Of a DNA stretch of 59,482 bases, positions 3,001 to 59,482 are shown in pieces. Source of the stretch: an uncultured Bacilli bacterium (lineage in GTDB: Bacteria; Bacillota_I; Bacilli_A; RF39; UBA660); the NCBI GenBank assembly GCA_947629815.1, contig CANRFG010000005.1, forward strand, positions 1-59,482. Reading direction: 5' to 3'. Below the pieces are notes generated by a model. It saw only the letters and a list, made by a program, of their open reading frames with translations, searched no databases and was not told the origin of the DNA. Numbering within the stretch: the first letter of the stretch is position 1; the number at the start of each line of letters is the position of its first letter. A program made the position numbers and the translations under genes.

Positions 3001-6000
3001 GTTTTACAAATAATAAAGGATATTTTGTACCCATTAAAATATCAGTTCCAAAAGATGAAGATTGGTTTGCAGATTATAAAAATACTTGGAAATTGATATT
3101 AAATACTGAAAGTGGAAAGGAGAAGACTTATCAGCCAACTCCTGAAGAATATGAACAAGGTTGGGTAATGGTTTTATTTAGATTAGATGATAAGTCTACT
3201 AAAGAAATTAAATATAAAATCGATTTTGATGGAGATGGAGATGCTTTCTTACCAGATGAGTATACAATTGATTATAGCGAATTAAAATTTGAAGAAGCAC
3301 ATAAATTAACATTTAATGGGCTAAAAACAGGGTTAACAGTATATGATGGTGATACAATTACAGAAGATATGTTACCAGAAGATACACCAGAGGTTTCTGA
3401 TGCATATCATAATTTTGCTTATTGGGCAAATGAAGAAGGTACAAATATTGTAGGTACAAAAATTACTTCTGATACAGAAGATAATATAACTTTAGAACCA
3501 CATTGGAATTTGTATTCAGATAAATTTATAGCTGATGTTCTTGAAGATTTGAATAAAACAGAAGATTCGAAATCAGAAGACTTTAGTAGTGAATTTAAAA
3601 TCGAAGATTATGTAGAAAATAGTGGAGAAATTACTATTACAGTAATTGATCCTACAACTAAATTATCAAGAATGAATGATACAAGCATTCCAGGGGCAAT
3701 AGCTTATATATTATCAAAAGATGAAATTAACGAAATAACATTATCAGTTAATGGAGAAGAAAAAACATTTACAAAAAATGGTATAGAAGACCAAGCAGAA
3801 TTAAAGAAAGCTATTCAAGATGGCGCAAAAGAATTATACTCAAAAATATTAAAAGAAAATTTTGGTGATAAAACTGATGAAGATGTAACTTTAGGAGAAA
3901 TTGCTAATAAAGAAGGATATGAGAGTTTCACATTGAAATTTAATCCAGAAAAAGTTTCAAAAACAGTTACACTTGTAAAAGCACCTGCTCAACAAGGAAT
4001 TTCACTTGCAAGTAATATAGAAGTACCAACTGATTACAAGTTTACATTTGAATCAGATATGGTTGTTGTAAAAACACAACAAGAATTAGAAAATGCATTA
4101 AGTAGTAAGGCAGAACATATATTTATAGGTGATAATTTTGAAGTTAATAAAACTATAGATATTAATAGAAAAGTAGTAATAAGTGGAAATGAAAAATATA
4201 CTATAACTGCTGGAAGTAATGTTGACACAATATTTACTGTAAAATCTATGGGAGTAACTATTGATACGATTAAATTAGCGAATGCAAAAACATCAATTGT
4301 TGTTGAAAGTAACGGAAATTTAGTATCAACAGGATTAGAAATTAGTGTAACAGGTGCAGAAGCTGGTATAGAAGTTAAAACAGGAGGAACTTTCACAGGA
4401 AGTGAAATAACTTATGAAGGTGAAAAATATAGTAAACCTTTAGTTAAAGCACAAGATAGTGCAACTGTTAATGTAACTAATATTAAAAAAGAAATTTCTA
4501 AACCTATTACAATGCAAGAAGTTAAAAGATATGAAAAACCAAGCAGTGATATAGTTTCAAACTATATTGGAGATGAATTAATTAACAAAGAGGGTTATAA
4601 TTACAAAAATTATTATAATGACCCTGATGTGGAACACAATTTTATAAAAATAGTTTATAGTGGAGACCGTGTTACTACATCTTATCCAATTTCATTTACA
4701 AGATGGTTTGACAAAGAACATCCTGATAAAATTGAACCAGATGATGATATAAAATATTTAACTACATATAGTGATGCTTTAGCAGATTACACTATTGAAG
4801 CTTGGGTAAAAGGAGCTGAAAGCTATGAAAAAGGTAAGGTTCCACAACCAACAGAAGATACTTACTATGGAGCTGATTTAAAAGCAACTTACCACGCAGA
4901 AGTAACTACTGTAAAAGATGAGCAACAATTAAAAGAAGCAGTGAGTGAAAAGGGTGTTCATAGTGTAATTATAGTTGAAGGAAAAATTTCATTAACGAGT
5001 GAATTAAATATTGAAAAAGACAATATTACAATTATTGGAGTAAATTCAAAAGGAATTAAGAATTATGCTACTATTGAGGGTAAAATAAAAGTATCTTCAG
5101 ATGATGTACATTTTGAAAAAATTAATATTATAGGTAATTCAAGTACTGAAGATGAAAATCAAAATGTTATTACTGTTGAAGGAACAGGATTTAGTACTTA
5201 TCAAGCAAATGTTAGTGCAAATGCAATAACTGGAGGAAAAAATTGGCATAGTTTAGTCGAATTTACACATGAAAATCCAAGTACTATTATTTACTTTGGT
5301 AATTTTGAAGGCTCTAATGCTGAAATGATAATTAATTTTGAAAAAGCAATAGGTAATTCTTCTAAAATTGTAGGGAATAATTTTAATGGGGCTTTAGAAA
5401 CAAAAGAATTTATTTATATAAATGCTATTGATAATGATGCTAATATTGAAATTAGGCAACAAACTGCAACTTTTGTAGGTCAAAATGAATATGGTATTAG
5501 GATTAAAGCACCTAAAGAAAAAACAACTGCTAAAATTAGTTTAGGTTCATTCTGGGCTAATAGTCTTAATAAAACTCTTAAAATAGGAATTGATGTAACT
5601 GACACTGATTATGATGCATCTGGATTCACTTTCGAAGCAGGCGCTATATTTGAAGATAAAATAAAAATTGAATATATTGATGCTGAAGGTCATACTTCAG
5701 AAACTAATCCAAAAGGTGTTACATATAATGCAACACTTAAAATTGGAGATAAAATAGTATCTTCTAATATTCCAGAATCTGCAACTATTTCAGGTTTAAC
5801 TAAAAATGGTAATACATATTCTGGATTAGTAAGTCAAAGTGTTGATGGTAAATTTTATTTACCATTGACACTAACATCAAGTAAATTTGATGATAGAGTA
5901 TCTACAGTAACTGTTACAGACCCAAATGGTAATAGCGAGGAATATTTATATTCTTCAAGAAGTAATAATGGTGTAGCAATAAGTAGTGCTAATACAATGC

Positions 6001-42045: not shown

Positions 42046-43080
42046 ATGACAGTTGTGTCAATGAATTATTTATTAGAAGCTGGAGTTCATTTTGGACATC
42101 AAACAAAAAGATGGAATCCAAAAATGAAAGAATATATTTTTACATCAAGAGATGATATATATATCATAGACTTACAAAAAACAGCTAAAAAAATTGAAGA
42201 AGCTTATGCTGCATTAAAAACAATTGCAGAAAATGGTGGAAAGGTTTTATTTGTAGGAACTAGAAAACAAGCTAGTGAAGCTACAAAAGAAGAAGCTTTA
42301 AGAAGTGAATCTTACTATGTTAATGAAAGATGGTTAGGTGGAACTTTAACTAATTTTAGAACTATAAGAAAAAGAGTTAAAAGATTAGAAGACATCGAAA
42401 AAATGGAAGCAGATGGAACATTTGATGTATTACCTAAAAAAGAAGTAATCAAATTAAGAAAAGAATACGACAAATTAAATAAAGTTCTATGTGGAATTAG
42501 AGATATGGTTAAATTACCAAGTGCCTTATTTATAGTTGACCCTTCAAAAGAAGAAATCGCTATAAAAGAAGCAAGAATATTAAATATTCCTGTATTTGGT
42601 ATAGTAGATACTAATTGTGACCCTGATATGGTAGATTATGTAATACCAGGAAATGATGATGCTATTCGTGCTGTTAAACTAATTATTGGTGTTATGGCAA
42701 ATGCAATAGTAGAAGCTAATGGTGGTAAATTAGTAGACTATGTATCAGCTGATTCACAAAAAAATATTAATCCAACAGAAATTATGCAAAAAGCTGTTGA
42801 TTCAGTAAAGAAAAAAGAAGATAGACAAAAAAGATTCGATGAACATAAGCAAAAAAACGATAAAAAACCATTTGAAAAAAAATCATTTAACAAAGTAGAA
42901 AAAGAAGAAACAGAAGAACCTAAAGAAGAAAAAGAACCTGTTAAAAAAGAAAAAGCCGTTAAATCAAAAACTGATTTATCAAAATTAACAGTATCTGAAC
43001 TTCGTGAAATGGCAAAATCAAAAGACATTAAAGGTTATTCTACAATGAAAAAAGCCGAATTAATCGATGCTTTAAAATAA
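42046..43080 (+). CDS. rpsB: 30S ribosomal protein S2 with a charged linker and C-terminal Rho-N-like (helix-extension-helix) domain
   Basis: [44 protein letters not shown]; tail [34 protein letters not shown]. Confidence 0.97.
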
Positions 43081-46920: not shown

Positions 46921-47415
46921 ATGAAAATTATAAAAGAATTAATACCATATTTAATTATAATAATAGTAGTTATAATTATTAGATGTTTCATAGTAGAGCC
47001 TGTTAGGGTAAGTGGTAATTCAATGTATCCAACTTTAAAAGATAATGATATAGTTTTACTTAATAAATTTAATAAAAATATTAAAAGATTTGATATTGTA
47101 GTATTTCAATATGGCGATAAAAAATTGATTAAAAGAGTAATTGGACTACCTAATGAACATATAAAATATGTTAATGGTATTTTATATATAAACAATGAAA
47201 AAATAGATGATGTTGATTTGAAAGTTGAAACTGATAATTTTTATTTAGATGACTTAGGTTATGATAAAATCCCAGAAGGTTATTATTTTGTAATGGGAGA
47301 TAATAGAATACTTTCTGAGGATAGTAGAGTAATTGGTCTTATATCAAAAAAAGATATAAAAGGTGTTGGTGTTTTAAGAATATTTCCATTAAATCAAATA
47401 GGATTTGTAAAATAA
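46921..47415 (+). CDS. lepB: Signal peptidase I
   Basis: VSGNSMYPTL, LIKRVIGLP, VMGDNR..SEDSR. Confidence 0.93.
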   Translation: MKIIKELIPYLIIIIVVIIIRCFIVEPVRVSGNSMYPTLKDNDIVLLNKFNKNIKRFDIVVFQYGDKKLIKRVIGLPNEHIKYVNGILYINNEKIDDVDLKVETDNFYLDDLGYDKIPEGYYFVMGDNRILSEDSRVIGLISKKDIKGVGVLRIFPLNQIGFVK

Positions 47416-47416
47416 T

Positions 47417-48748
47417 ATGAATGGTGAAATAGGTTCTTTATCAAATAGACTAAAAATATATAAAAATAATGTACTAAGGAATAAGAAAAAAAAATTAAAA
47501 CTAGAAACCAAAAAACAAGTAATCATAATTAAACATAAAAAGAAATCTAAAATAAAAACATTTCTAATGGTGTTAATTGGTTTTATATTTGGATTTTTTG
47601 AAAATATAGCAAATAAAAAACAAGAATTAAAAAAAGTAAAAAGTGAAAATATCAAATATAATACAAAAGAAAATAAATTTGAATCAATATATAATAAAAA
47701 AATAAAACTTAATTATGTTAAATCTTATTCCAAAGATATACTTTATAAAAAAAATAAAATAACTTATATAAATAAAACTATAAAATTTGATAATAATGTA
47801 AAGTCAAAAGAAAATAAAAGTACATATAATAAAATAACCAATTATAATATTTTAAATAATACCAACAAAAATTTAATTAAAAAAGAAGACAACAATATAA
47901 AACAAAACAATTTAAAAATAATAAATAAAAAAATAGGAATATATTCTAATAAAATTTTAAATGACAAAATAAAATTACATAATAATAAAATTGATACATG
48001 TGTAAAAATAACAAAAAAAGGAAATGACAATATACTTTTATCTCAACAACAAATGAAAAATAATAAAAATGTAAAAAATCAAAATGAAGTTCAAAATAAT
48101 TTAAAAATTAATAAAGAGAAAAACCAAGAAAAAATAAAACAAGAAAAAATACAAGAACAAATAGATAAAGAAGATGTAAAAAGAGGTATTGATATTATAT
48201 CTAAACAATTAAAAAATCAAAAAAAATTCATTGATAAAGAAATGGAGGTATTAAAAAAATATAAAGGGAAAATAAATGATAAATTAAAAATAAATTATTT
48301 TTCCATGTTTTTAAATAATACATTTAAAATGATACTTAGTTTTTTACCTATTTCTTTATTTCAAAATAAATTATTTGGTACTTTAGTAAGTACAATCCTT
48401 TTAAATAATTCAATTAAAACTATGAGAAATGAAATAAACTTAAAAAACAACGCAAAAATTATAGTTCCAAAATATCTAACAGAGATAGAAAAAGAAAGTG
48501 ATGTCATTAACTCTACATATGATATTTGTATAGATTCCCTAGAACAAATAGACTTATTAAAAACAGAGTTTACAATAAAAAATCACATGTATTCAAAAAC
48601 ACAAGAATATAAAGTCGCATTAGAAAGTTTAACTAACATTGAAACACAAATAAAAAAAACATTAGAAGAAACAGAAAAACTTATTAAAATGAAACAAGAA
48701 ATAGAAAAAAATACAAAGCAAAAAATATATAAAATAGTTAAAAATTAA
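47417..48748 (+). CDS. Lys/Asn-rich hypothetical protein with hydrophobic segments and coiled coils
   Basis: 443-aa ORF starting 1 nt after lepB; low complexity. Confidence 0.55.
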   Translation: MNGEIGSLSNRLKIYKNNVLRNKKKKLKLETKKQVIIIKHKKKSKIKTFLMVLIGFIFGFFENIANKKQELKKVKSENIKYNTKENKFESIYNKKIKLNYVKSYSKDILYKKNKITYINKTIKFDNNVKSKENKSTYNKITNYNILNNTNKNLIKKEDNNIKQNNLKIINKKIGIYSNKILNDKIKLHNNKIDTCVKITKKGNDNILLSQQQMKNNKNVKNQNEVQNNLKINKEKNQEKIKQEKIQEQIDKEDVKRGIDIISKQLKNQKKFIDKEMEVLKKYKGKINDKLKINYFSMFLNNTFKMILSFLPISLFQNKLFGTLVSTILLNNSIKTMRNEINLKNNAKIIVPKYLTEIEKESDVINSTYDICIDSLEQIDLLKTEFTIKNHMYSKTQEYKVALESLTNIETQIKKTLEETEKLIKMKQEIEKNTKQKIYKIVKN

Positions 48749-48874: not shown

Positions 48875-51800
48875 ATGAGAATAAATCGTATGAAATTTTT
48901 TTTAATATTATTAACAATTATTTTATTACCAATAAATGTTTTTGCTAAAGAAAAAATAACTTTAGAATTAGATAAAACTGATTTAGAAGTAGGAGAAAAT
49001 GTAACTGTAATCGCTAAATTACCTACTGATACAAAACTTTATGCATTAACTGCTGTATTAAGCTATGATTCATCAGTTTTTGAACAAATAGATTATACAG
49101 ACTTTAATTTATTAGATGATGCAATAGATGTAGTTTATAATACAAACAATAATAAATTTGGAATTATAAATAAGTCAGGAGAAATTAAAGAAGAATTATT
49201 TAGAGTTACTTTAAAAGTAAAAGAAAATGCAAATGTTGGAAATACTTCAATTTCATTAACTAATATTTCATCATCAGATGGAGATAATACAATAAGTTTT
49301 GAAGAAACATCAACAAAAGTTTTAGTAACTCGCGATGCTACTAAAGATGAAGTAATACAAAATAATCCAGAAAAAGAAGTTGAACATGCTGATATAAAAG
49401 AAGAAAAAATAAAATCATTTTCAACAATGCCTATAATGATTTGCCTTTCAATAGTTATACTATTATTAATTATATGTGCAATAATAAATAAAAAAGAAAA
49501 CAAAAATAAACCTTTTGTTATTTTAACTAGCCTAGCTGTATTGTTTTTAGTTGCGCTAATATCATTATTCATTGTAAATAATAATAAAAAAGATGTAAAC
49601 AATGATGGCAAGGAAAACTACGAAGATGCAAAAGAAATTATGAAATACCTTATAGATATAGAAGGAACAAAATCTTCTTCTGATTCAACAAATCAAAATT
49701 CAAATAACAGTAACTCCAATCATTCAAATAAAGATAAATTTGATTATGATGTAAATAATGATGGAAAAGTAGACCTTGATGATGTTTCAAGTAGTACACA
49801 ACATGTTACAGAAGATATCAAATATGAAGTAAGTTTAAAAGAAAAAGAACAAGAATTTTATGTAAATAAAGGAAATATAACTCTAGAATTTGAAGCTAAT
49901 GTTACAAATAATGAAAAAATAAAAGAAGTTAATATAGATGGTAAATATTATCCTGTTGTTTATAACAATGTTTATAGTGTTACTTTAAATACACCATCAA
50001 CATCAGGTGTACATATATTTAAAATTTCAAAAGTAAAATTAGTTAATAACAAAGAAGTAGACACTAAATTAGAAATAAAAAGGGAAATATTAAAAGATGA
50101 ACCTTATGTAGATATGTTCAATTTCGATGATAAAGAAAAAACTTTAACATTTAAATTAGAAGATAAAGAAAAATCTTTTATCGAAGGAAACATTATAATT
50201 GAAGATAAAAATGGAGTAGAAGTAGTTAATAAAAAAATAAGTAATGACAATAATATAAAGTATGATTTTAAAATAGGTGAAAAATATACAGTAATGATTT
50301 TTGTAACATATGACCTTGATACAAACGAATTTACAAATATAACAGGTCAAATGAATAGAGTAGAAAATAAAGCTATTTATAGTCATATCTTATCAATTGA
50401 TACTAACTATAACTTCAAAATAACAAACATTAACATAAGTGATGCAATAGAAAAAGGAGAAAAACCAACTATTACTTTTGAAAGTACAAATAGTAAAGGA
50501 TATACAGTTGAATATATAGAAATCGATGGAGTAAAATATAAGGTTTCACCAAAATATGAAAAAAATAAGTATATAGTTGTTTTAGATAATATAAATACTG
50601 ATAATTATGGTAAATATCATATTGATATAGATAAAGTAGAAATGAATAACTACAAAGTATTTGAAAGAGATATTGATTATAAATCAAATACATTAAGTTA
50701 TACTGTACTTAAAAAAGCACCAACTGTTGAAAATATAACACTAGATGTTAACAAAGATGAAGAAGAAATAATTGTTAATTATAAAGTTATCGATAATGAT
50801 AAAACATTAAATAGTTTAAATCTTTATTTAGTAGATACTAACAATAATGTTGTTGCAAATATGGATAGTGTAGAAGCAGGAAATAAACAAATACTTTCTT
50901 ATTCAGGAAATATCTCAGGAGGATATAGAGTTAAATTTTTAGCTAACTATAATTTAGGTACTGATAGACATAATTATACTGATGTTAATCTTGGAGAAAA
51001 AGGTGTACTTACACAAAGTGATGTAGTTATTACAAAAGTAGAAGTAGGTTTAAATAACAATAAAACAAATCCATATCCAACAAAAAATCAACAAAAATAT
51101 CAAATAAGATATACAATTTCATTAAGTGAAAATATTATTAATAAATACAACAGATTTGCTGGTGTTACAATAAATGGAATAAATTTTGATGGTGGCTCTA
51201 ATACAGTAGATAAAAATGGAATCGCAACTACAACAATAAGTTTTACTGTACCTAGTTCATCAGGTATTGTAGACTTAAGAGTTGATAGAGTTAAATTGGC
51301 ATCAGAAAGTTATCAAGGTGTTAGTCAAGCATTTTTTACAATAGAGCCTTATACAACTCAAATTGATGTTTTAAAAGATAAACCTTCAATTGAAGATTTA
51401 GAAATTGTTGATGAAGATTATGATAATGGTAATGTTACATTTAAATTCAAAGTTATAGATGATAAAGGTGGATTTGAAAGAGGTAGTGTTTCATTAGATG
51501 GTCAAGTTAAAGATATAACACTTAAAGATAATTTAGTAACATTTACAAATATTACTAAAGATAAACAATTTAATTTACTATTTACTTCTGATTTTGATTT
51601 AGATACTAATACATTAGATGAAGATACAAATTTAAATAGTTATAAGAATGAAAAAATTTATGAAGTTTCTTATGGACTTTATAGTAATGATAAATATGAC
51701 AAAATAAATATTATTGATTTATCAACTTTATCAGAAAATAAAAATTATTTTGAAAAAAACGAACAAATCAAACTAAACTTTAATGTTGTTAAACCTGATA

Positions 51801-54800
51801 TAGATTTTGAAGTAGATAAAATAATAATAGAAGGTAATGAGTATAATGTTTTAAAAACTAATGATGGTTATACGACAACTATCCTAGGTTATTTAACATC
51901 AGGAATTAAGGAAATAAAAATAGAAGAAATCATATTAAATAATGGTAAAAAAATAACTTTAAATACACCTGCTTCAATAAAGATTGAAGTACTAAAAGAT
52001 ATAGTTAGTGTATATGATTTTAAATATGAAATAAATGATGATAAAATTAAATTAAACCTTTCTTTAAAAGATGATGACAAATCAATTATTGGAGACGCTA
52101 AAGATTATGTAAATGTAAATATTTACAATGAAAAAGGTCAATTATTATATAGTTTACCTTACAACAATGAAATTGAATTTAATAGAGCAGATAATTTATT
52201 AAGATACTATATTGATGTTTCAGCTACTTATGATAGAGATATTTCAAGAAAAAATGATAATTATTATGAAAATATGAAACTTTTAGATGAAGTCGTATCA
52301 ATAGATAAAAATTATATAGAAATAAAAGATATTATAGATGTAACTTTATATAAAGAAGAAGAAAATAAAACAACAGCAGTTGAAGAAGTTGATATTAAAG
52401 ATTTACAAGATAATTTAGATAATTATTTTGTAAAAATTTCTATGACTAATATGCCATCTATACATGGAAAAATAACTAAAATATTAAATGAAAATAATCG
52501 TTTGATTCTTATACTAGACTATGAATATACAGTTAAACAAAATTCAAAAGAAAAACAAGACTTAAGAATTGACTTTGGTCAAATAAAAGATGGTAAAGTT
52601 ATAAATGAAGCACGACCAGAAACAATGGAACAACTTATAGAAAGAATTACTAAAAATCCTTCTTCACATGTAATTTTAACTCGTGATTATGATATGTCAG
52701 AAATAAAAGTAAACACTAATACATATTTTGATGTAGAATTTGAAGGTATATTTGATGGTAATGGACATACAATTAAAAATTTAGATAGACCTTTATTTAA
52801 AATAGTTAGAGGTACTGTTGAAAATTTAAAAATTGAAAATGTTACTTTACCTTCAGGTGAAGGTACAAAGGGAACATTAGCAAATACTACATATGGGGCA
52901 AATATTAAAAACATATTAGTAAATGCTGTATCAAAAAGCAATTCAACAACAGCAACAGGTGGATTGATAGGTGATGCTAATAATACTATTATTGAAAATT
53001 GTCGAGTTACTAATGTTAATTTCAATCTTAATTATTTAGCGCAACAAAATGGAGCCTTAGTTGGTAAACTTAACAATTCAACAATTAAAAATTGCTATGC
53101 TAGTGGAAAAATAAATGGTGGATATAATTTCATTGGTGGTCTTGTAGGTGATGGTTTTGGTGGTTCTGTTATTACAAATAGTTATGCAAAAGTAACATTG
53201 ACAGGTAATGGATATAATACTACAAGTGCATTTGCAGGTTCATATCGTGGTAATTTAACTATTAAAAACTCAATTAGTTTAAGTAATGGTTTTTATTACT
53301 CATTCTCTGGAAACTTAGAAAAATCAGAAAATAATTATTTTGTAAATAATGGTAAATCAGGTAGTGAACATCCATCATTAACAAAAGTAGAGATTAATGA
53401 TGTAAATGAGAAATTATTTAAAGAAGATTTAAAATTTGATAATGATATTTGGAAATTAAGTAATATATCTTATGATAATTTACCAATATTTAATTTTGAA
53501 AAAGTAACAAAAATTAATGTTGAAGAAGTTGGAAATGACTACGATGAAAGTAAAGAATTATTATACAACAACTTAATGTTATTAATGCCTTACTATGATA
53601 GTAGTAAAATAGTAAGTAGCGCTAAAAACATTTCAGATAATACACTTTTATCAAAACAAGAAATTAAACATATAATTCCAATAGATGAAAATGGAAATGT
53701 TGTAACTTATTTAACTACTGAAAATCAAACAAAAATCAAAAAAATAAAAATAGTATTTAACAACAACGAAACTGAAGAATATGATGTACGCTATGATAAA
53801 ACATATGATATGATTGCAAGTTATCGAATCAGCGATTTAATGATTGATTATACTTATAATCATTATGTATTAGATAGTAATTCACAATTAGTAAATAATT
53901 TAACTAATTATTTAACTGATTTAACTTATGAAGATAACTTAGATAAATTAACTACTTCTACAGATAGTAGAATATATAGTGAATTTTATAATGATGTTAC
54001 AAAAAAAGAATTAAAACAATTTGTTTTAAAATATTTATCTAATAGTAATTATGCAGTTACAAGTTCAAATGAAGCAATTAGTGATTATTTAGAAAGAGAA
54101 ATTAAAAGTGACAAAAAACTAGAAAAAATGTTATATGTATATAATTACTTTAGACGCTTCTATGATGTAGAAATAGATGGTATTAAGTTATATGATTTTA
54201 TGCTATTTAATTCACAGGGATTTAGTGATTCGATGACACCTTACTCTATTGCGGAAATGTATTTAAATAATAAAGATAGTTTTGCAACTAATAAAACTAA
54301 TGATGCATATAGAGATTTATTAAGTAAATATACAGGATATACAACCATTCCTGAATTATTGGAATACTTAGTTCAAGTATTAAGTAATGAAGACCCTGCA
54401 GATTGGTATGCAAGTCAATTTAAAGGATATTTAATAGAATTAAATGTCGATAATCGCCCTGATATTGAATACAGGTTATGGGAACATATAAAAACACAAG
54501 ATAAAAATACAAAAGTAAATTGGTTTAATTATGCTTTACCAATTATAACTTTACCAGAAAATGCCGCTTACATAATATCAACTCCTACTCAATTTGTAAT
54601 TGGAGCGCAAAGAACTTACATGAATGACCCATATAACGAATCTGATAGAGCAGTATTTTTAGAAAAAGTAAAAACATATACAGCAAGAATGAAAGAATAT
54701 TATACAACTGCTGCTTCAATAATTGAAGATAAAGATATATTTAACAATATCCATACAATTCAAATAGATAAAAGATTTGCTTATGAAAATGGTGTTTTAA

Positions 54801-56098
54801 CTTTCCAAAGTCCTTATTCAACACAAGAACCATTCCATAAAAACTTCAATGAAGTAATTGGTCAATGGGCATATCCAGATGGTAATGCAGCAACAGCAAA
54901 TGGTGCTTATATAATATGGCGTGCAGAAGGAGTATTAGATGGAGAATGGACTTATCATACTTGGTCACATGAAACTGCTCATAACATGGATGCTAGATTA
55001 TTCTTAAAAGATAATGGAAGAAGATTTGATGCAGGTGGAGAAGATTATGCTGATGGAAATTTAAATCAAATATTTAATGACCATGATATTGTAATGAATA
55101 TATCAATGCATTTTCAAGATAAAGATAATATAGCAGCTAATCTTGAACCAAGTAGAATAGATAGTAAAGAAGAAATTTATGATTTTTATAATAAACTATT
55201 TGATACAGTATATATTATGGACTATTTAGAAGGTCAGGCTTTCTTAAAATTAACACCTGAAGAACAATCTAAACTTGCAGTTCAAGTTTCTTATCCAAGA
55301 GAAACAGAAGAATTACATGAAGGTGAAGAATATTTAAAACGACAACATACAGTATATCAAGAAATTTCAACTGAAGAATTCGAAAAAATGAACTTAAGTT
55401 CTATGAAAGATTTATATACTAATCATTTAGTTATGTATCCTGGCGTAATTTATACGACACTAACTACTAATCGATATGGTGGAGAAAATATACTAAAAGT
55501 ACGCTGGTATCAACCTCACAATGATTTAGGTAGACCAGATTCATATAGTATAAAATGGTGGGCTTATGAAATGTTAGGATATGCTGGATATGATGATGGT
55601 TATATTGAATATTATAGTAATATTAATTCAATAAAAAAGAATGTATATCAAGTAAGAAATACTATACCTGGTATGTATGAAGTAGACTATAAAACTGATT
55701 TAATGGCTTTACAAAAAATTACTAATCAATCAGATATGACTTTTGAAAAATATAGATTAGGTAGATTTGATAAAGTAGAACAGAATTTAACAAATATTCA
55801 AGTAATTAATGTTAATGAATACTTTAACAAATTCTATGATGCATTAAAAAAAGATGCAGAAGCAGTTAAAAAAGCACAAGATGAAGCATTAAAATTATAT
55901 CCAAGAGATACAAAAGAAATGATTGATAAACGAAATTCATATGTTATTAATAGTAAAGCAAAAGAATTAACTAATAGTTCAGCTGTTAGAAAAGAATTAT
56001 ATTTCGAACTAAAAAATGGAACAAATGATTTTATAGGAGATGTTTATAATTCAACTAATAAACAAGTAGTAAATCCATTTACTATTCCAAGCAATTAA
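48875..56098 (+). CDS. Giant ZmpA/B/C (peptidase M26, IgA1-protease-like) surface metalloprotease with an N-terminal cohesin-like domain, two TM helices, a dockerin-like module, Ig-like repeats and a GLUG-like beta-helix
   Basis: Signal peptide (..NVFA|K); cohesin-like aa ~25-150; two DVNNDGK..D loops; FDGNGHTIKNL, GGLIG/GGLVG; LLYNNL.LMPYY; HTWSHETAHNMD..EDYADG; YEMLGYAGY. Confidence 0.8.
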   Translation: MRINRMKFFLILLTIILLPINVFAKEKITLELDKTDLEVGENVTVIAKLPTDTKLYALTAVLSYDSSVFEQIDYTDFNLLDDAIDVVYNTNNNKFGIINKSGEIKEELFRVTLKVKENANVGNTSISLTNISSSDGDNTISFEETSTKVLVTRDATKDEVIQNNPEKEVEHADIKEEKIKSFSTMPIMICLSIVILLLIICAIINKKENKNKPFVILTSLAVLFLVALISLFIVNNNKKDVNNDGKENYEDAKEIMKYLIDIEGTKSSSDSTNQNSNNSNSNHSNKDKFDYDVNNDGKVDLDDVSSSTQHVTEDIKYEVSLKEKEQEFYVNKGNITLEFEANVTNNEKIKEVNIDGKYYPVVYNNVYSVTLNTPSTSGVHIFKISKVKLVNNKEVDTKLEIKREILKDEPYVDMFNFDDKEKTLTFKLEDKEKSFIEGNIIIEDKNGVEVVNKKISNDNNIKYDFKIGEKYTVMIFVTYDLDTNEFTNITGQMNRVENKAIYSHILSIDTNYNFKITNINISDAIEKGEKPTITFESTNSKGYTVEYIEIDGVKYKVSPKYEKNKYIVVLDNINTDNYGKYHIDIDKVEMNNYKVFERDIDYKSNTLSYTVLKKAPTVENITLDVNKDEEEIIVNYKVIDNDKTLNSLNLYLVDTNNNVVANMDSVEAGNKQILSYSGNISGGYRVKFLANYNLGTDRHNYTDVNLGEKGVLTQSDVVITKVEVGLNNNKTNPYPTKNQQKYQIRYTISLSENIINKYNRFAGVTINGINFDGGSNTVDKNGIATTTISFTVPSSSGIVDLRVDRVKLASESYQGVSQAFFTIEPYTTQIDVLKDKPSIEDLEIVDEDYDNGNVTFKFKVIDDKGGFERGSVSLDGQVKDITLKDNLVTFTNITKDKQFNLLFTSDFDLDTNTLDEDTNLNSYKNEKIYEVSYGLYSNDKYDKINIIDLSTLSENKNYFEKNEQIKLNFNVVKPDIDFEVDKIIIEGNEYNVLKTNDGYTTTILGYLTSGIKEIKIEEIILNNGKKITLNTPASIKIEVLKDIVSVYDFKYEINDDKIKLNLSLKDDDKSIIGDAKDYVNVNIYNEKGQLLYSLPYNNEIEFNRADNLLRYYIDVSATYDRDISRKNDNYYENMKLLDEVVSIDKNYIEIKDIIDVTLYKEEENKTTAVEEVDIKDLQDNLDNYFVKISMTNMPSIHGKITKILNENNRLILILDYEYTVKQNSKEKQDLRIDFGQIKDGKVINEARPETMEQLIERITKNPSSHVILTRDYDMSEIKVNTNTYFDVEFEGIFDGNGHTIKNLDRPLFKIVRGTVENLKIENVTLPSGEGTKGTLANTTYGANIKNILVNAVSKSNSTTATGGLIGDANNTIIENCRVTNVNFNLNYLAQQNGALVGKLNNSTIKNCYASGKINGGYNFIGGLVGDGFGGSVITNSYAKVTLTGNGYNTTSAFAGSYRGNLTIKNSISLSNGFYYSFSGNLEKSENNYFVNNGKSGSEHPSLTKVEINDVNEKLFKEDLKFDNDIWKLSNISYDNLPIFNFEKVTKINVEEVGNDYDESKELLYNNLMLLMPYYDSSKIVSSAKNISDNTLLSKQEIKHIIPIDENGNVVTYLTTENQTKIKKIKIVFNNNETEEYDVRYDKTYDMIASYRISDLMIDYTYNHYVLDSNSQLVNNLTNYLTDLTYEDNLDKLTTSTDSRIYSEFYNDVTKKELKQFVLKYLSNSNYAVTSSNEAISDYLEREIKSDKKLEKMLYVYNYFRRFYDVEIDGIKLYDFMLFNSQGFSDSMTPYSIAEMYLNNKDSFATNKTNDAYRDLLSKYTGYTTIPELLEYLVQVLSNEDPADWYASQFKGYLIELNVDNRPDIEYRLWEHIKTQDKNTKVNWFNYALPIITLPENAAYIISTPTQFVIGAQRTYMNDPYNESDRAVFLEKVKTYTARMKEYYTTAASIIEDKDIFNNIHTIQIDKRFAYENGVLTFQSPYSTQEPFHKNFNEVIGQWAYPDGNAATANGAYIIWRAEGVLDGEWTYHTWSHETAHNMDARLFLKDNGRRFDAGGEDYADGNLNQIFNDHDIVMNISMHFQDKDNIAANLEPSRIDSKEEIYDFYNKLFDTVYIMDYLEGQAFLKLTPEEQSKLAVQVSYPRETEELHEGEEYLKRQHTVYQEISTEEFEKMNLSSMKDLYTNHLVMYPGVIYTTLTTNRYGGENILKVRWYQPHNDLGRPDSYSIKWWAYEMLGYAGYDDGYIEYYSNINSIKKNVYQVRNTIPGMYEVDYKTDLMALQKITNQSDMTFEKYRLGRFDKVEQNLTNIQVINVNEYFNKFYDALKKDAEAVKKAQDEALKLYPRDTKEMIDKRNSYVINSKAKELTNSSAVRKELYFELKNGTNDFIGDVYNSTNKQVVNPFTIPSN

Positions 56099-58196: not shown

Positions 58197-58296
58197 TTAA
58201 ATGTATAATTTATATTAATAATGATAATTCTTGCTTTTTTTATGTTATAATTTAAATATAAGTTTATTAATTAATATAAATTTTATAGGTGATAAA

Positions 58297-58884
58297 ATGG
58301 AAATTATTATATTTAAATTAGAAGAACTTAAAAAGAATCTTAACGGATTTGCTTGTTATATTTTAGGTAGAAGTTATGATTTAGAAGAAAATGGAGTTAC
58401 TAAAAATTTTAAAGAAGCGTTAAAGTATTACAATGAAGGTATGAATCTAAATTATCCTTTATGTGAATATTCATTAGGTATTTCTCTGATTTTAGGATTA
58501 GGTGATGTATTAAAAATTGACAAAGAAAAAGGAACTAAACTATTAATAGAAGCTTATCCTAAGATTTTAAATATAATAAATAATCAAGATTTATCACCGG
58601 AAGAAAGATTATATGCGAAATTTGTGACAGGTGCTTATCATTATTATGGATTAGGAAATATAAGAAAAGATGATAAAAAAGCCTTTGATATAATACAAGA
58701 ATGTGCTAATGAAGGACATATTGCTGCAATATATGATCTAGGTGCAAATTTCTATTATAATGGAGTTGGCACTGAACGAGACATAGAAAAATCAAAATAC
58801 TATCTAAGTCTTGCTTCAGAAGCAGGACTCCCAAGAGCAATAAAAAAATATAATGATTATAATTTTGGTACTAAAAAATTATAA
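58297..58884 (+). CDS. Sel1-like repeat protein
   Basis: ACYILG..Y....GVTKNFKEALKYY, AIYDLG..YYNGVGTERDIEKS; ATG 58297 follows AGGTG. Confidence 0.85.
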   Translation: MEIIIFKLEELKKNLNGFACYILGRSYDLEENGVTKNFKEALKYYNEGMNLNYPLCEYSLGISLILGLGDVLKIDKEKGTKLLIEAYPKILNIINNQDLSPEERLYAKFVTGAYHYYGLGNIRKDDKKAFDIIQECANEGHIAAIYDLGANFYYNGVGTERDIEKSKYYLSLASEAGLPRAIKKYNDYNFGTKKL

Positions 58885-59078
58885 AAAAATAAGTTATCCA
58901 AGTGAATGAAAATAAAACTAATATGGTTGATTATGATTTATTTGATCCTTCGGTAAAATCTTTATAAATAAAAAGTTTTCGTGAAAAATGCTTTAAATTT
59001 CGTTAAATTTATGTGATGAAATGAAAAGGTGATTACGACATTTAACCCTTAATAAAAACAAGAAAGTAGGTGTTAATT

Positions 59079-59482
59079 TTGAATAATAAATTAGAAACAA
59101 TTTCAAATCTTTTTGATGGTAAAGAAATAAGAAGTATTTGGGATGATGAAAAAGAAGAATATTACTTTAGTGTTGTTGATGTTATAAATGCATTAACTGA
59201 TAGTAGTGATGCTAGAAAATATTGGTCTGTATTAAAGCTAAGATTGAAAAAAGAAGGATCTGAGTTGACTACATTTTGTAGTCAACTGAAATTAAAAGCA
59301 AAAGATGGAAAATTCTATAACACCGATGTATTAGATACTAAGGGAATTTTAAGATTAATTGAATCAGTTCCATCAAATAAAGCAGAACCATTTAAACTAT
59401 GGCTTGCAAATTTAGGAAGTGAAAGAATTGATGAGGTGTTTGATCCTGAAATTGCAGTTAATAGAGCAGTAGAATATTATCG
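59079..59482 (+). CDS. BRO-N domain (phage antirepressor-like) protein, truncated by the window end
   Basis: TTG start after AGTAGGTG; LFDGKEIRSIWD..EEYYFSVVDVI..RKYWSVLK.RL..EG..LKL.AKDGK...RLIESVPSNKAEPFKLWLA. Confidence 0.85.
   Translation, partial: MNNKLETISNLFDGKEIRSIWDDEKEEYYFSVVDVINALTDSSDARKYWSVLKLRLKKEGSELTTFCSQLKLKAKDGKFYNTDVLDTKGILRLIESVPSNKAEPFKLWLANLGSERIDEVFDPEIAVNRAVEYY

Follow-up and report, generated by a model that had tools for sequence, protein, structure and literature searches.

A cohesin, a membrane hairpin and a dockerin ahead of an M26-type metalloprotease in a gut Bacilli bacterium: a candidate self-locking anchor

The window analysed here, that is, the whole stretch of 59,482 nucleotides, holds a 2407-aa open reading frame (P0001; 48875..56098, plus strand, as are all features below) for an M26 (Zmp-type) zinc metalloprotease with an N-terminal anchoring cassette, in which a signal peptide, a cohesin, two transmembrane (TM) helices and a dockerin follow one another in this order. 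We propose that P0001 is a membrane-anchored, extracellular M26 protease and that its cohesin and dockerin form a cognate, Ca-dependent pair, acting either as a clasp or as a link between copies, a reading that we consider somewhat likelier to be right than wrong. In its fuller form the proposal is more tentative, and we regard it as possible rather than probable. Namely, the cassette may be a self-locking, portable anchor that was born by fusion, with TM2 as a fossil signal peptide, and that closes a non-covalent ring or links copies into dimers or arrays, replacing sortase anchoring for the giant exoenzymes of gut Bacilli with reduced genomes.

Architecture of P0001

A Shine-Dalgarno-like motif, GGGGTG, lies approximately 6 nt 5' of the ATG of P0001. 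The signal peptide (residues 1-24; 48875..48946), as read from sequence and a hydropathy peak at residues 6-24, is MRINRMKFFLILLTIILLPINVFA followed by KE, with cleavage predicted between VFA and KE; A24 is nearly invariant among 67 aligned homologues. The module that follows (residues 25-154; 48947..49336) matches Pfam Cohesin PF00963 at residues 28-142 with an E-value of 5.3e-12 and 46.6 bits, against a gathering cut-off of 24.1 bits, if the N-terminal 175 aa are scanned alone. A six-frame genome search gives it 47 bits, and the match is absent when all 2407 aa are scanned with Pfam at once. In the AF2 model the module is a beta-sandwich with pLDDT of about 90-97 that agrees with the nine-stranded jelly-roll of solved cohesins; its best Foldseek matches are cohesins (2vo8, E 2.6e-9, TM 0.78). 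What is more, cohesins occupy ranks 1-42 of the VIA comparison, where C. perfringens 2vo8 has Z 14.5 and an rmsd of 2.0 Å across 124 residues. By sequence, the N-terminus of P0001 finds only sub-threshold matches in the PDB (best E 0.065). Judging from the modelled fold, then, the N-domain is a genuine cohesin and not a generic Ig fold, which bears out the cohesin-like domain that a sequence-only reading of this DNA had described. Its deeply conserved residues are Y64, D65, F69, F77, N89 and F95.

An acidic, flexible and poorly conserved linker (residues 155-185; 49337..49429), modelled free of secondary structure at pLDDT 73-74, tethers the cohesin to TM helix 1 (residues 186-204; 49430..49486; hydropathy 3.25; AF2 helix 185-207), which would run from outside to inside. 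A Lys-rich loop (NKKENKNKPF, residues 205-214; 49487..49516), predicted to be cytoplasmic by the positive-inside rule, leads to TM helix 2 (residues 215-233; 49517..49573; hydropathy 2.94; AF2 helix 211-237), which would run back from inside to outside. The signal peptide and the Lys-rich loop would place both the cohesin and the dockerin outside the cell, as had been suggested before.

The dockerin (residues 238-314; 49586..49816) is assigned from Pfam Dockerin_1, its Ca ligands and the modelled helices. Its Ca loop 1 (residues 240-251, starting at 49592) and Ca loop 2 (residues 292-303, starting at 49748) carry ligands at positions 1, 3, 5 and 12, namely D240/N242/D244/D251 and D292/N294/D296/D303, and each is followed by an AF2 helix (249-265 and 301-314, respectively). 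The second of these helices is polar (VSSSTQHV). Across 67 sequences, D244, D251, D292, N294 and D303 are invariant and D240, N242, G245, Y249, D296 and G297 nearly so; the deep conservation of the module covers the Ca ligands plus Y249 and L259. Y249, at loop position 10, is replaced by I, T or E in the other dockerins of the host genome. Type I dockerins are built from compact, duplicated segments of about 22 residues, with a loop-to-loop spacing of about 33-38. In P0001 this spacing is 52 and falls outside the compact range because of a disordered Ser/Asn insertion of 22 residues between the loops (266-287), the sole stretch of the model with pLDDT below 50 (266-282); relatives range from 33 to 108, with 33-38 in 16 of 61 two-loop relatives. 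When residues 232-322 are scanned alone, Dockerin_1 (PF00404) scores a marginal 23.8 bits (E 5e-5, cut-off 22.9), and with more context the score drops to 17.2 bits (residues 1-342) and 13.6 bits (all 2407 aa). Relatives that have the cassette reach 29-49 bits, and those with canonical spacing exceed the Pfam cut-off. The E-values of the P0001 matches lie well outside what chance would produce; only the dockerin call for this copy is borderline, and it rests on homologues, which support the assignment of its Ca loops to a dockerin, as claimed before. The signal peptide, the cohesin, the TM helices, the loops at 49592 and 49748 and the Ser/Asn linker all lie where the sequence-only reading had put them.

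Beyond the dockerin extends a stalk of repeated units (residues 320-1144; 49832..52306) with VLKD-type boundaries at 405, 832 and 1039; a Pfam scan of residues 310-1209 returned no family. It is followed by a region homologous to IgA1 protease/ZmpA (residues 1145-2392; 52307..56050), recognized through NCBIfam, PDB and Pfam and including GLUG motifs. Peptidase_M26_C matches residues 1647-2390 with an E-value of 2e-28 and 99.4 bits (cut-off 22), covering profile positions 2-791 of 792, and reaches 102.7 bits at 53813-56044 in the six-frame search. In the PDB, IgA1 protease 7jgj is matched with E 7.5e-57 (query 47-1208 of 1307 against chain residues 6-1209), and Gemella 7uvk matches the C-terminal ~1200 aa with E 2.8e-50. 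The NCBIfam scores of 181 bits for ZmpA (over 1145-2392) and 146 bits for ZmpB are far below their cut-offs of 3000, so that P0001 is an orthologue of neither. The zinc site is of the HEXXH...E type, with HETAH at 2032-2036 (zinc-binding H2032 and H2036) and E2056 (54968..55042), the latter a probable zinc ligand by analogy with the family motif (PMC3518915), and the RRFDAGGEDYAD block is kept in the homologue consensus. The HETAH of P0001 differs from the motifs HEMTH, HEMVH, HETTH and HELTH cited in PMC3518915. By domain, motif and homology, P0001 is thus an M26 (Zmp/IgA1-protease family) metalloprotease, and the M26_C match and HETAH confirm the Zmp/IgA1-protease-like identity first suggested for it. 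What would such an enzyme cut? By family, one may guess at IgA, a mucin-type glycoprotein or another host mucosal protein. The gene belongs to an uncultured, genome-reduced gut Bacilli with a genome of ~1.1 Mb (93.8% complete). That so small a genome devotes 7 kb to an enzyme of the IgA-protease type is a sign that the bacterium interacts directly with host mucosal proteins.

Conservation and spread of the cassette

Residues 1-340 of P0001 are matched by 76 long proteins (1323-4213 aa searched), with E-values between 5e-93 and 9e-10. With P0001 included, at least one Ca loop directly follows the TM pair in 77 of 77 proteins and two loops do so in 69, while HExxH is present in 75. A wider set of 210 retrieved relatives gives the same picture. 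In 119 of them the chain continues for 30 aa or more beyond a hairpin; 102 of these 119 have a Ca loop of the strict pattern no more than 30 aa from the hairpin, and another 16 have a variant loop (e.g. GELNGDG), as judged by eye. In total, then, 118 of 119 hairpin relatives have a dockerin loop, P0110 being the sole exception.

The cassette is also found ahead of other payloads. Three of the listed homologues, in none of which M26 is matched, have it N-terminal to domains of the BNR or Sortilin type: in P0179, LRRs precede a cohesin (1040-1158), a TM pair, a dockerin (1296-1348) and BNR, and in P0180 and P0195 the cassette occurs with Sortilin/BNR domains (the Pfam scan of the relatives left out P0097, of 5721 aa). 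In a further relative (G156; locus L014, 4003-4758, minus strand) the chain stops after signal peptide, cohesin and both TM helices, and a dockerin and a protease are absent downstream, which counts against the pairing proposed here. The Zmp cassette is present in 4 of 41 genomes, the host included. Taken together, these sequence comparisons indicate that signal peptide, cohesin, TM hairpin and dockerin form a conserved, portable cassette.

Could small relatives of 200-240 aa with signal peptide, cohesin and TM helix be anchors in their own right, with homology to the Zmp cohesin? This idea was dropped after six sequences had been examined: at least three of the six (P0090, P0091 and P0098) have irregular tails after TM1 and look truncated or frameshifted, and we draw no conclusion from them. 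In a protein atlas, the closest clusters consist of small proteins from Bacillota that have both Cohesin and Dockerin_1, at scores of 0.84-0.87, which fall below 0.9 and are a lead only.

A candidate clasp and its alternatives

How might these parts work together? With the signal peptide cut, the cohesin would lie outside the cell, tethered to TM1 by some 30 residues, the Lys-rich loop would lie in the cytoplasm, and TM2 would return the chain to the outside, where the dockerin would begin about 5 residues above the membrane and bear some 2100 aa of stalk and protease. Binding of cohesin to dockerin within one chain would form a clasp over the hairpin; alternatively, the binding could be reciprocal between neighbouring copies. 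Such a non-covalent lock would stand in for the sortase/LPXTG element that precedes the same hairpin in streptococcal Zmps. As for origin, a gene for a signal peptide-cohesin-TM anchor may have fused with a gene for a dockerin-bearing enzyme, whose signal peptide would have become TM2. Adjacent cohesin-anchor/dockerin gene pairs appear to be common in the host's bacterial family, cohesin and dockerin matches being no more than about 500 bases apart in 14 of 40 relatives as well as in the host genome, and pairs of the type seen on host contig C6 are a plausible source for such a fusion. The C6 pair itself consists of a 714-aa protein with SH3_3 and a dockerin, followed by a 484-aa protein with signal peptide, cohesin (4112-4600 of locus L017), cadherin-like domain and TM helix. 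That said, the hairpin would already anchor P0001, and a clasp is hence without obvious necessity.

The motif LPx[TSA]G is absent from P0001; no more than 2 of the 77 homologues have it, and in these it lies deep in the chain (residues 1955 and 1371) and nowhere near the N-terminus. The idea that the cohesin took the place of LPXTG through lack of a sortase or cell wall is ruled out by 3 sortase and 5 transpeptidase matches in the host genome.

The AF2 model of residues 1-342 has pLDDT 84.9 and pTM 0.77, and that of a 27%-identical cassette (G017) has pLDDT 82.7 and pTM 0.70, values of pTM that may be inflated if AF2, working without a membrane, packs the TM helices on the soluble domain. Since pTM is high although the cohesin makes up only 38% of the chain, we infer from these models that cohesin, hairpin and dockerin hold a fixed mutual arrangement. 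Complex prediction of the cohesin (25-155) with the dockerin (235-318) gave ipSAE of 0.47, 0.44 and 0.47, while the best of three controls reached 0.02; the runs share at least 98% of contacts, and the partner's pLDDT of at least 49 leaves its own fold uncertain. In calibration, 58 of 80 solved complexes passed the ipSAE mark, as did 2 of 110 mismatched pairs, and passes at 0.60 or below comprise 7 of the 80 solved complexes and both mismatches. Moreover, solved cohesin-dockerin complexes exist, so that a pass may reflect likeness only, and in models of this kind cousins of the real partner tend to score as well. The prediction thus lends weak support to a cohesin-dockerin contact within P0001. 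Of the uses that the sequence-only reading had offered for the two modules, a clasp, a polymer or docking of other proteins may apply, but the cellulosome-like surface protease complex is not supported by the genome-wide census. Namely, a six-frame profile search of the 93.8%-complete host genome found two cohesin matches, one each in two proteins, four dockerin matches in three proteins (P0001 included) and no multi-cohesin scaffoldin; beyond P0001, a single protein with a cohesin and two with dockerins do not make a cellulosome-like multi-enzyme complex.

These same few proteins could still be the real partners and assemble at the surface into a small mixed complex: the Zmp cohesin would recruit the C16 or C6 dockerin proteins, the Zmp dockerin would plug into the C6 cohesin, or both. 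The C16 protein, with Big_2/Listeria-Bacteroides repeats and at least two tandem dockerins, has no cohesin gene in view beside it; the contig stops at this gene, and a tblastn search of the other contigs found no continuation. A precedent may be seen in the 'mucinolysomes' of Limousia, which, as described in PMC12997984, join dockerin-bearing peptidases to scaffoldins, and the tendency of complex models to score for cousins would fit a partner in trans as well. We nevertheless consider such a hub unlikely. In particular, it leaves unexplained why 118 of 119 hairpin proteins combine cohesin and dockerin and why the two travel jointly onto non-M26 payloads. What is more, the C6-type dockerin gene already sits beside its own cohesin gene in the 14 relatives mentioned above, most of which are without the Zmp cassette, and the cassette-bearing genome G007 gave only one other dockerin match.

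Two further readings seem to us less probable still. If TM2 were cut by signal peptidase as a second signal peptide, as has been proposed for streptococcal Zmps, the freed dockerin-protease would be held by the TM1-anchored cohesin, and the order of the modules is exactly what this would need. The gene for signal peptidase I, lepB (46921-47415), lies one ORF upstream, and the order rplS-lepB-Zmp is seen again in two, L007 and L009, of the 5 related loci that were compared (the locus search with P0001 as single protein gave 3 related loci), an adjacency that may mean nothing, as rplS-lepB is a housekeeping cluster. TM2, however, comprises 22 hydrophobic residues with NNNKK directly behind them and is free of small residues at -3/-1; a small -3/-1 pair within 12 residues ahead of the first Ca loop occurs in 32 of 77 homologues, P0001 not among them, and at no conserved site in the 77. 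A conserved cleavable signal peptide at TM2 is thereby ruled out, which makes cleavage followed by docking very improbable. Equally remote, in our opinion, is the reading by which cohesin and dockerin do not bind at all, the former serving as a spacer or adhesin and the Ca loops doing no more than stiffen the juxtamembrane segment. The marginal Dockerin_1 score of the P0001 copy and the weakness of the complex test would suit it. Against it stand the strict co-occurrence of the two modules among hairpin relatives, the Ca ligands, which do not vary, and the surface residues on both modules that hardly vary across about 25% identity, and a complex score far above controls. A cognate pair within the cassette therefore remains our preferred reading.

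Relation to known systems

To our knowledge, Zmp-type proteases have been studied almost only in streptococci, where the N-terminal anchor of LPXTG and hairpin is poorly understood. The P0001 family, which keeps the hairpin, has a cohesin in for the sortase motif and adds a dockerin, offers a natural experiment on this N-terminal element. Moreover, should the pair bind as proposed, it would constitute a compact, genetically encoded unit for surface anchoring or self-assembly that might be used for surface display. Our literature search found no paper that ties cohesins or dockerins to M26, Zmp or IgA proteases or to a TM hairpin, passages of PMC12997984, PMC6487960 and PMC3518915 included.

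The M26 enzymes of streptococci and Gemella (IgA1 protease/ZmpA, ZmpB, ZmpC and ZmpD) are, like P0001, giant secreted HEXXH...E metalloproteases, homologous to its C-terminal ~1200 aa (7jgj, 7uvk). The streptococcal N-terminus, as described in PMC3518915, also has a signal peptide, two hydrophobic segments and a variable repeat region. Unlike them, P0001 has a 130-aa cohesin instead of LPXTG and a dockerin after the hairpin, and a Pfam scan finds no G5 domain in it.

The cohesins closest to that of P0001 come from C. perfringens GH33 and GH84C (2vo8, 2w1n, 2jh2 and 2o4e; Z 14.5 to 14.2, 19-23% identity), and the modules of this toxin complex, like those of P0001, sit on host-directed hydrolases and not on plant-fibre enzymes. 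In that non-cellulosomal system, cohesin and dockerin are found on different secreted enzymes, which they join in trans; it has neither a TM hairpin between the modules nor an M26 protease. In the Limousia 'mucinolysome', according to PMC12997984, it is again peptidases from gut Bacillota that bear dockerins, and a part in breaking down host mucosal glycoproteins has been proposed; such systems are sortase-anchored and comprise 3-6 scaffoldins, carrying up to 12 cohesins, and as many as 22 CAZymes with dockerins. The present host, by comparison, has single cohesins, three dockerin proteins and TM anchors.

Both module types do occur on one polypeptide, as in P0001, in adaptor scaffoldins such as R. 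flavefaciens ScaA and in proteins of Archaeoglobus fulgidus; the P0001 model is similar to the A. fulgidus cohesin 2xdh at Z 11.4, and the protein from which 2xdh derives presumably also bears a dockerin. In adaptor scaffoldins, cohesin and dockerin each have a partner of their own, and the two are not separated by a membrane hairpin. Cohesin and dockerin modules normally join separate proteins; if our proposal is true, P0001 would have such a pair at work inside one membrane protein, and not between proteins.

The protease and its N-terminal cassette

The enzyme considered here (P0001, 2407 aa; ORF 48875-56098, plus strand) comes from an assembly of 1.14 Mb in 46 contigs, with a G+C content of approximately 24% and a completeness of 93.8%, of which the window is the entire contig C5; the nearest named relatives of this genome are rabbit-gut MAGs (uncultured Bacilli bacterium). 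The expectation of a Zmp/IgA1-protease-like enzyme is borne out by the HMM scan, which gives Peptidase_M26_C at residues 1647-2390 (Pfam, E 2e-28), along with GLUG motifs. Residues 1145-2392 align with the NCBIfam models ZmpA (181 bits) and ZmpB (146 bits), both far under the 3000-bit cut-offs, and the final 1307 residues are matched end to end by the S. pneumoniae IgA1 protease 7jgj (E 7.5e-57) and also by 7uvk from Gemella (E 2.8e-50). As its zinc motif the sequence has HETAH (2032-2036), and E2056 stands 20 residues past the second histidine. Taken together, the Pfam, NCBIfam and PDB matches and the zinc motif mark a genuine yet distant M26 member, which is not an orthologue of any named streptococcal Zmp.

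Between lepB and the protease gene lies an ORF of 443 aa (47417-48748, plus strand), rich in Lys and Asn and with a single hydrophobic segment, for which a Pfam search returned no family match; at two related loci, L007 and L009, the gap between the lepB match and the start of the protease gene is about 200 bases and holds no ORF of at least 120 aa. Elsewhere in the window, ribosomal protein S2 (42046-43080, plus strand) carries an unusual C-terminal extension with a Rho_N/HeH-like domain (residues 310-343, E 1.5e-9), and the stretch downstream of the protease gene (58231-59480, plus strand) encodes a Sel1-repeat protein, next to an ORF with a BRO-N domain that crosses the contig end, a pair that may be the edge of a mobile element or prophage.

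The N-terminal elements described in the sequence-only reading are all located where it had placed them: a signal peptide (SP; residues 1-24, ending VFA/KE), a beta-domain (25-154), two hydrophobic helices (186-204 and 215-233, nt 49430-49573) and two Ca loops, starting at D240 (nt 49592) and D292 (nt 49748) and split by a Ser/Asn-rich stretch of 22 residues. Profile searches recognize both proposed modules, depending on context. Namely, Pfam Cohesin is absent from the listing for the whole protein and reaches 46.6 bits (E 5.3e-12, cut-off 24.1) when residues 1-175 are scanned alone, while Dockerin_1 scores 23.8 bits (cut-off 22.9) on residues 232-322 alone and 17.2 and 13.6 bits in longer contexts. 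In an AlphaFold2 model of residues 1-342 (alignment of 43 rows; pLDDT 84.9, pTM 0.77), a beta-sandwich (29-152) precedes helices at 185-207 and 211-237 and dockerin helices at 249-265 and 301-314, with disorder restricted to 266-282. The beta-domain sorts with cohesins in Foldseek and VIA-align, the top matches coming from glycoside hydrolases of C. perfringens: 2vo8 (E 2.6e-9, Z 14.5, rmsd 2.0 Å over 124 residues), then 2w1n and 2jh2 at Z 14.2; since cohesins occupy the ranks through 42, the objection that this is a generic Ig fold fails. The Ca ligands of both dockerin loops are invariant or nearly so among 67 aligned sequences. A cassette from the relative G017, 27% identical and with a canonical three-helix dockerin, also gives a confident fold (pLDDT 82.7, pTM 0.70). 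As the cohesin makes up less than 40% of the residues, we take pTM values of 0.77 and 0.70 to mean that AlphaFold2 settles how cohesin, hairpin and dockerin are placed relative to one another, with the caveat that packing of the TM helices without a membrane could inflate them.

The cleavable signal peptide, the net-positive inter-helix loop NKKENKNKPF and the start of the dockerin some 5 residues past TM2 suggest that both modules would be extracellular, and an acidic tether of about 30 residues would be long enough for the cohesin to reach the dockerin. The codons of the inter-helix loop (49487-49516) contain A-rich runs (aaaaaagaaaacaaaaataaa), and at least 3 of 6 short database relatives terminate irregularly directly after TM1; such ends could be homopolymer frameshifts, by assembly error or phase variation.

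Conservation and spread

A word-indexed search with residues 1-340, limited to proteins of 1323-4213 aa, returned 76 matches (E 5e-93 to 9e-10); an exhaustive profile-free search gave 310 representatives at E <=1e-3 and 40 at <=1e-30. With P0001 counted, one or more Ca loops come after the TM pair in 77/77 proteins and two in 69/77, and HExxH is present in 75/77. Spacing between the dockerin loops ranges from 33 to 108 residues (canonical, 33-38, in 16/61), so the linker is expandable and the Ser/Asn insertion of P0001 is one of its states. In 119 of the 210 retrieved relatives a hairpin is followed by 30 aa or more; a strict-pattern Ca loop follows within 30 aa in 102 of these and a variant loop, by eye, in 16 of the remaining 17, the sole protein without one being the multi-TM P0110.

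The cassette also accompanies payloads beyond M26: in P0179, LRRs precede the cohesin (1040-1158), TM pair and dockerin (1296-1348), and BNR repeats come after, and P0180 and P0195 combine the cassette with Sortilin/BNR domains. A counter-example is found in G156, where a 251-aa SP-cohesin-TM-TM ORF (L014, 4003-4758, minus strand) has neither dockerin nor protease downstream and is followed by a membrane-protein gene; it may be the remnant of a deleted cassette gene. The distribution is patchy, with the cassette occurring in 4/41 relatives when its own genome is counted, in none of the three genomes of the same genus and in 34/301 genomes of the family (25/227 of the high-quality ones), in some as two copies.

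Proposed pairing of cohesin and dockerin

Complex prediction for the cohesin (25-155) and the dockerin (235-318), with 67-row alignments each, gave ipSAE values of 0.47, 0.44 and 0.47, against 0.02 for the best of three controls. In calibration the mark was reached by 58/80 solved complexes and 2/110 mismatched pairs, and passes at <=0.60 came from no more than 7 of the 80 solved complexes and from both passing mismatches. Contacts agree to at least 98% between runs, with a partner pLDDT of at least 49, its own fold being uncertain. The proposed AlphaFold check on the pair therefore lends weak support to a predicted contact and leaves the partner's fold in doubt; what is more, because cohesin-dockerin complexes have already been solved, the pass may reflect likeness to these only.

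We lean, by a little, towards the view that cohesin and dockerin are cognate partners that bind in a Ca-dependent manner on the outer side of the membrane. Binding would take the form of a cis clasp or be reciprocal between copies, and the pair would replace the LPXTG element of streptococcal Zmps ahead of the same hairpin. The arrangement would derive from the fusion of an SP-cohesin-TM anchor to an enzyme carrying a dockerin, the enzyme's signal peptide having turned into TM2. A cognate pair is preferred to its rivals because the modules strictly co-occur, the cassette has moved as a whole onto other payloads, and either module has nearly invariant residues. A hub in which the modules bind other partners strikes us as rather unlikely, and the case that they do not bind at all as improbable. 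Cleavage by signal peptidase after TM2, with subsequent docking, would agree with the secretion model in PMC3518915; however, a small -3/-1 pair is present in only 32/77 homologues, P0001 not among them, and no conserved site was found, and we give this course little credence. The self-pairing cassette is, in our view, an attractive hypothesis.

Other cohesins and dockerins, and known systems

The genome-wide census did uncover a further cohesin protein and two further dockerin proteins, and no multi-cohesin scaffoldins. The cohesin protein (484 aa, SP-cohesin-cadherin-like-TM; contig C6, L017 4112-5566) scores 21-23 bits, its orthologues in relatives exceeding the cut-off. Directly upstream is the gene of a 714-aa SH3_3 protein with a C-terminal, canonical, internally symmetric dockerin (L017 1958-4102); by our own reading of coordinates, dockerin-then-cohesin adjacency recurs in 14/40 relatives, and the pair looks like a minimal, family-wide cohesin-dockerin tether. 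The other dockerin protein (contig C16, L003 655-1791) combines a Listeria-Bacteroides repeat and Big_2 domains with two or more dockerins, arranged in tandem within a repeated unit of about 90 aa; the assembly breaks within the repeat, the gene is cut by the contig end, and its continuation was not found on other contigs. At L015 (G100:C7:35500-41500), two pairs succeed each other, each a dockerin-ending exoprotein gene and then a small SP-beta-domain-TM gene, one exoprotein being 945 aa long with repeated Ig-like units. The small inventory and the adjacent pairs indicate that, in this family, single cohesins anchored in the membrane routinely serve as tethers for exoproteins, and that multi-cohesin scaffoldins are not built. 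In other words, the observation of the P0001 architecture is solid, and the cellulosome-like surface protease complex read into it is too strong for a genome with two cohesin and three dockerin proteins. There are also 3 sortase and 5 PBP matches in this genome, so the missing LPXTG of P0001 is not forced by an absent sortase or wall.

In the literature, we found neither cohesins or dockerins joined to M26, Zmp or IgA proteases nor a description of a cohesin-hairpin-dockerin unit, although a 2009 survey of noncellulosomal modules might contain either. Limousia mucinolysomes include dockerin-bearing peptidases, and the terms 'M26' and 'IgA' occur neither in the text of that report (PMC12997984) nor in 10 of its supplements. 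The cohesins nearest to that of P0001 are the non-cellulosomal ones of the C. perfringens toxin complex, which belong to glycoside hydrolases. As for streptococcal Zmps, as described in PMC3518915, the signal peptide and two-helix layout are common to them and to P0001, whereas their LPXTG is missing from the P0001 anchor.
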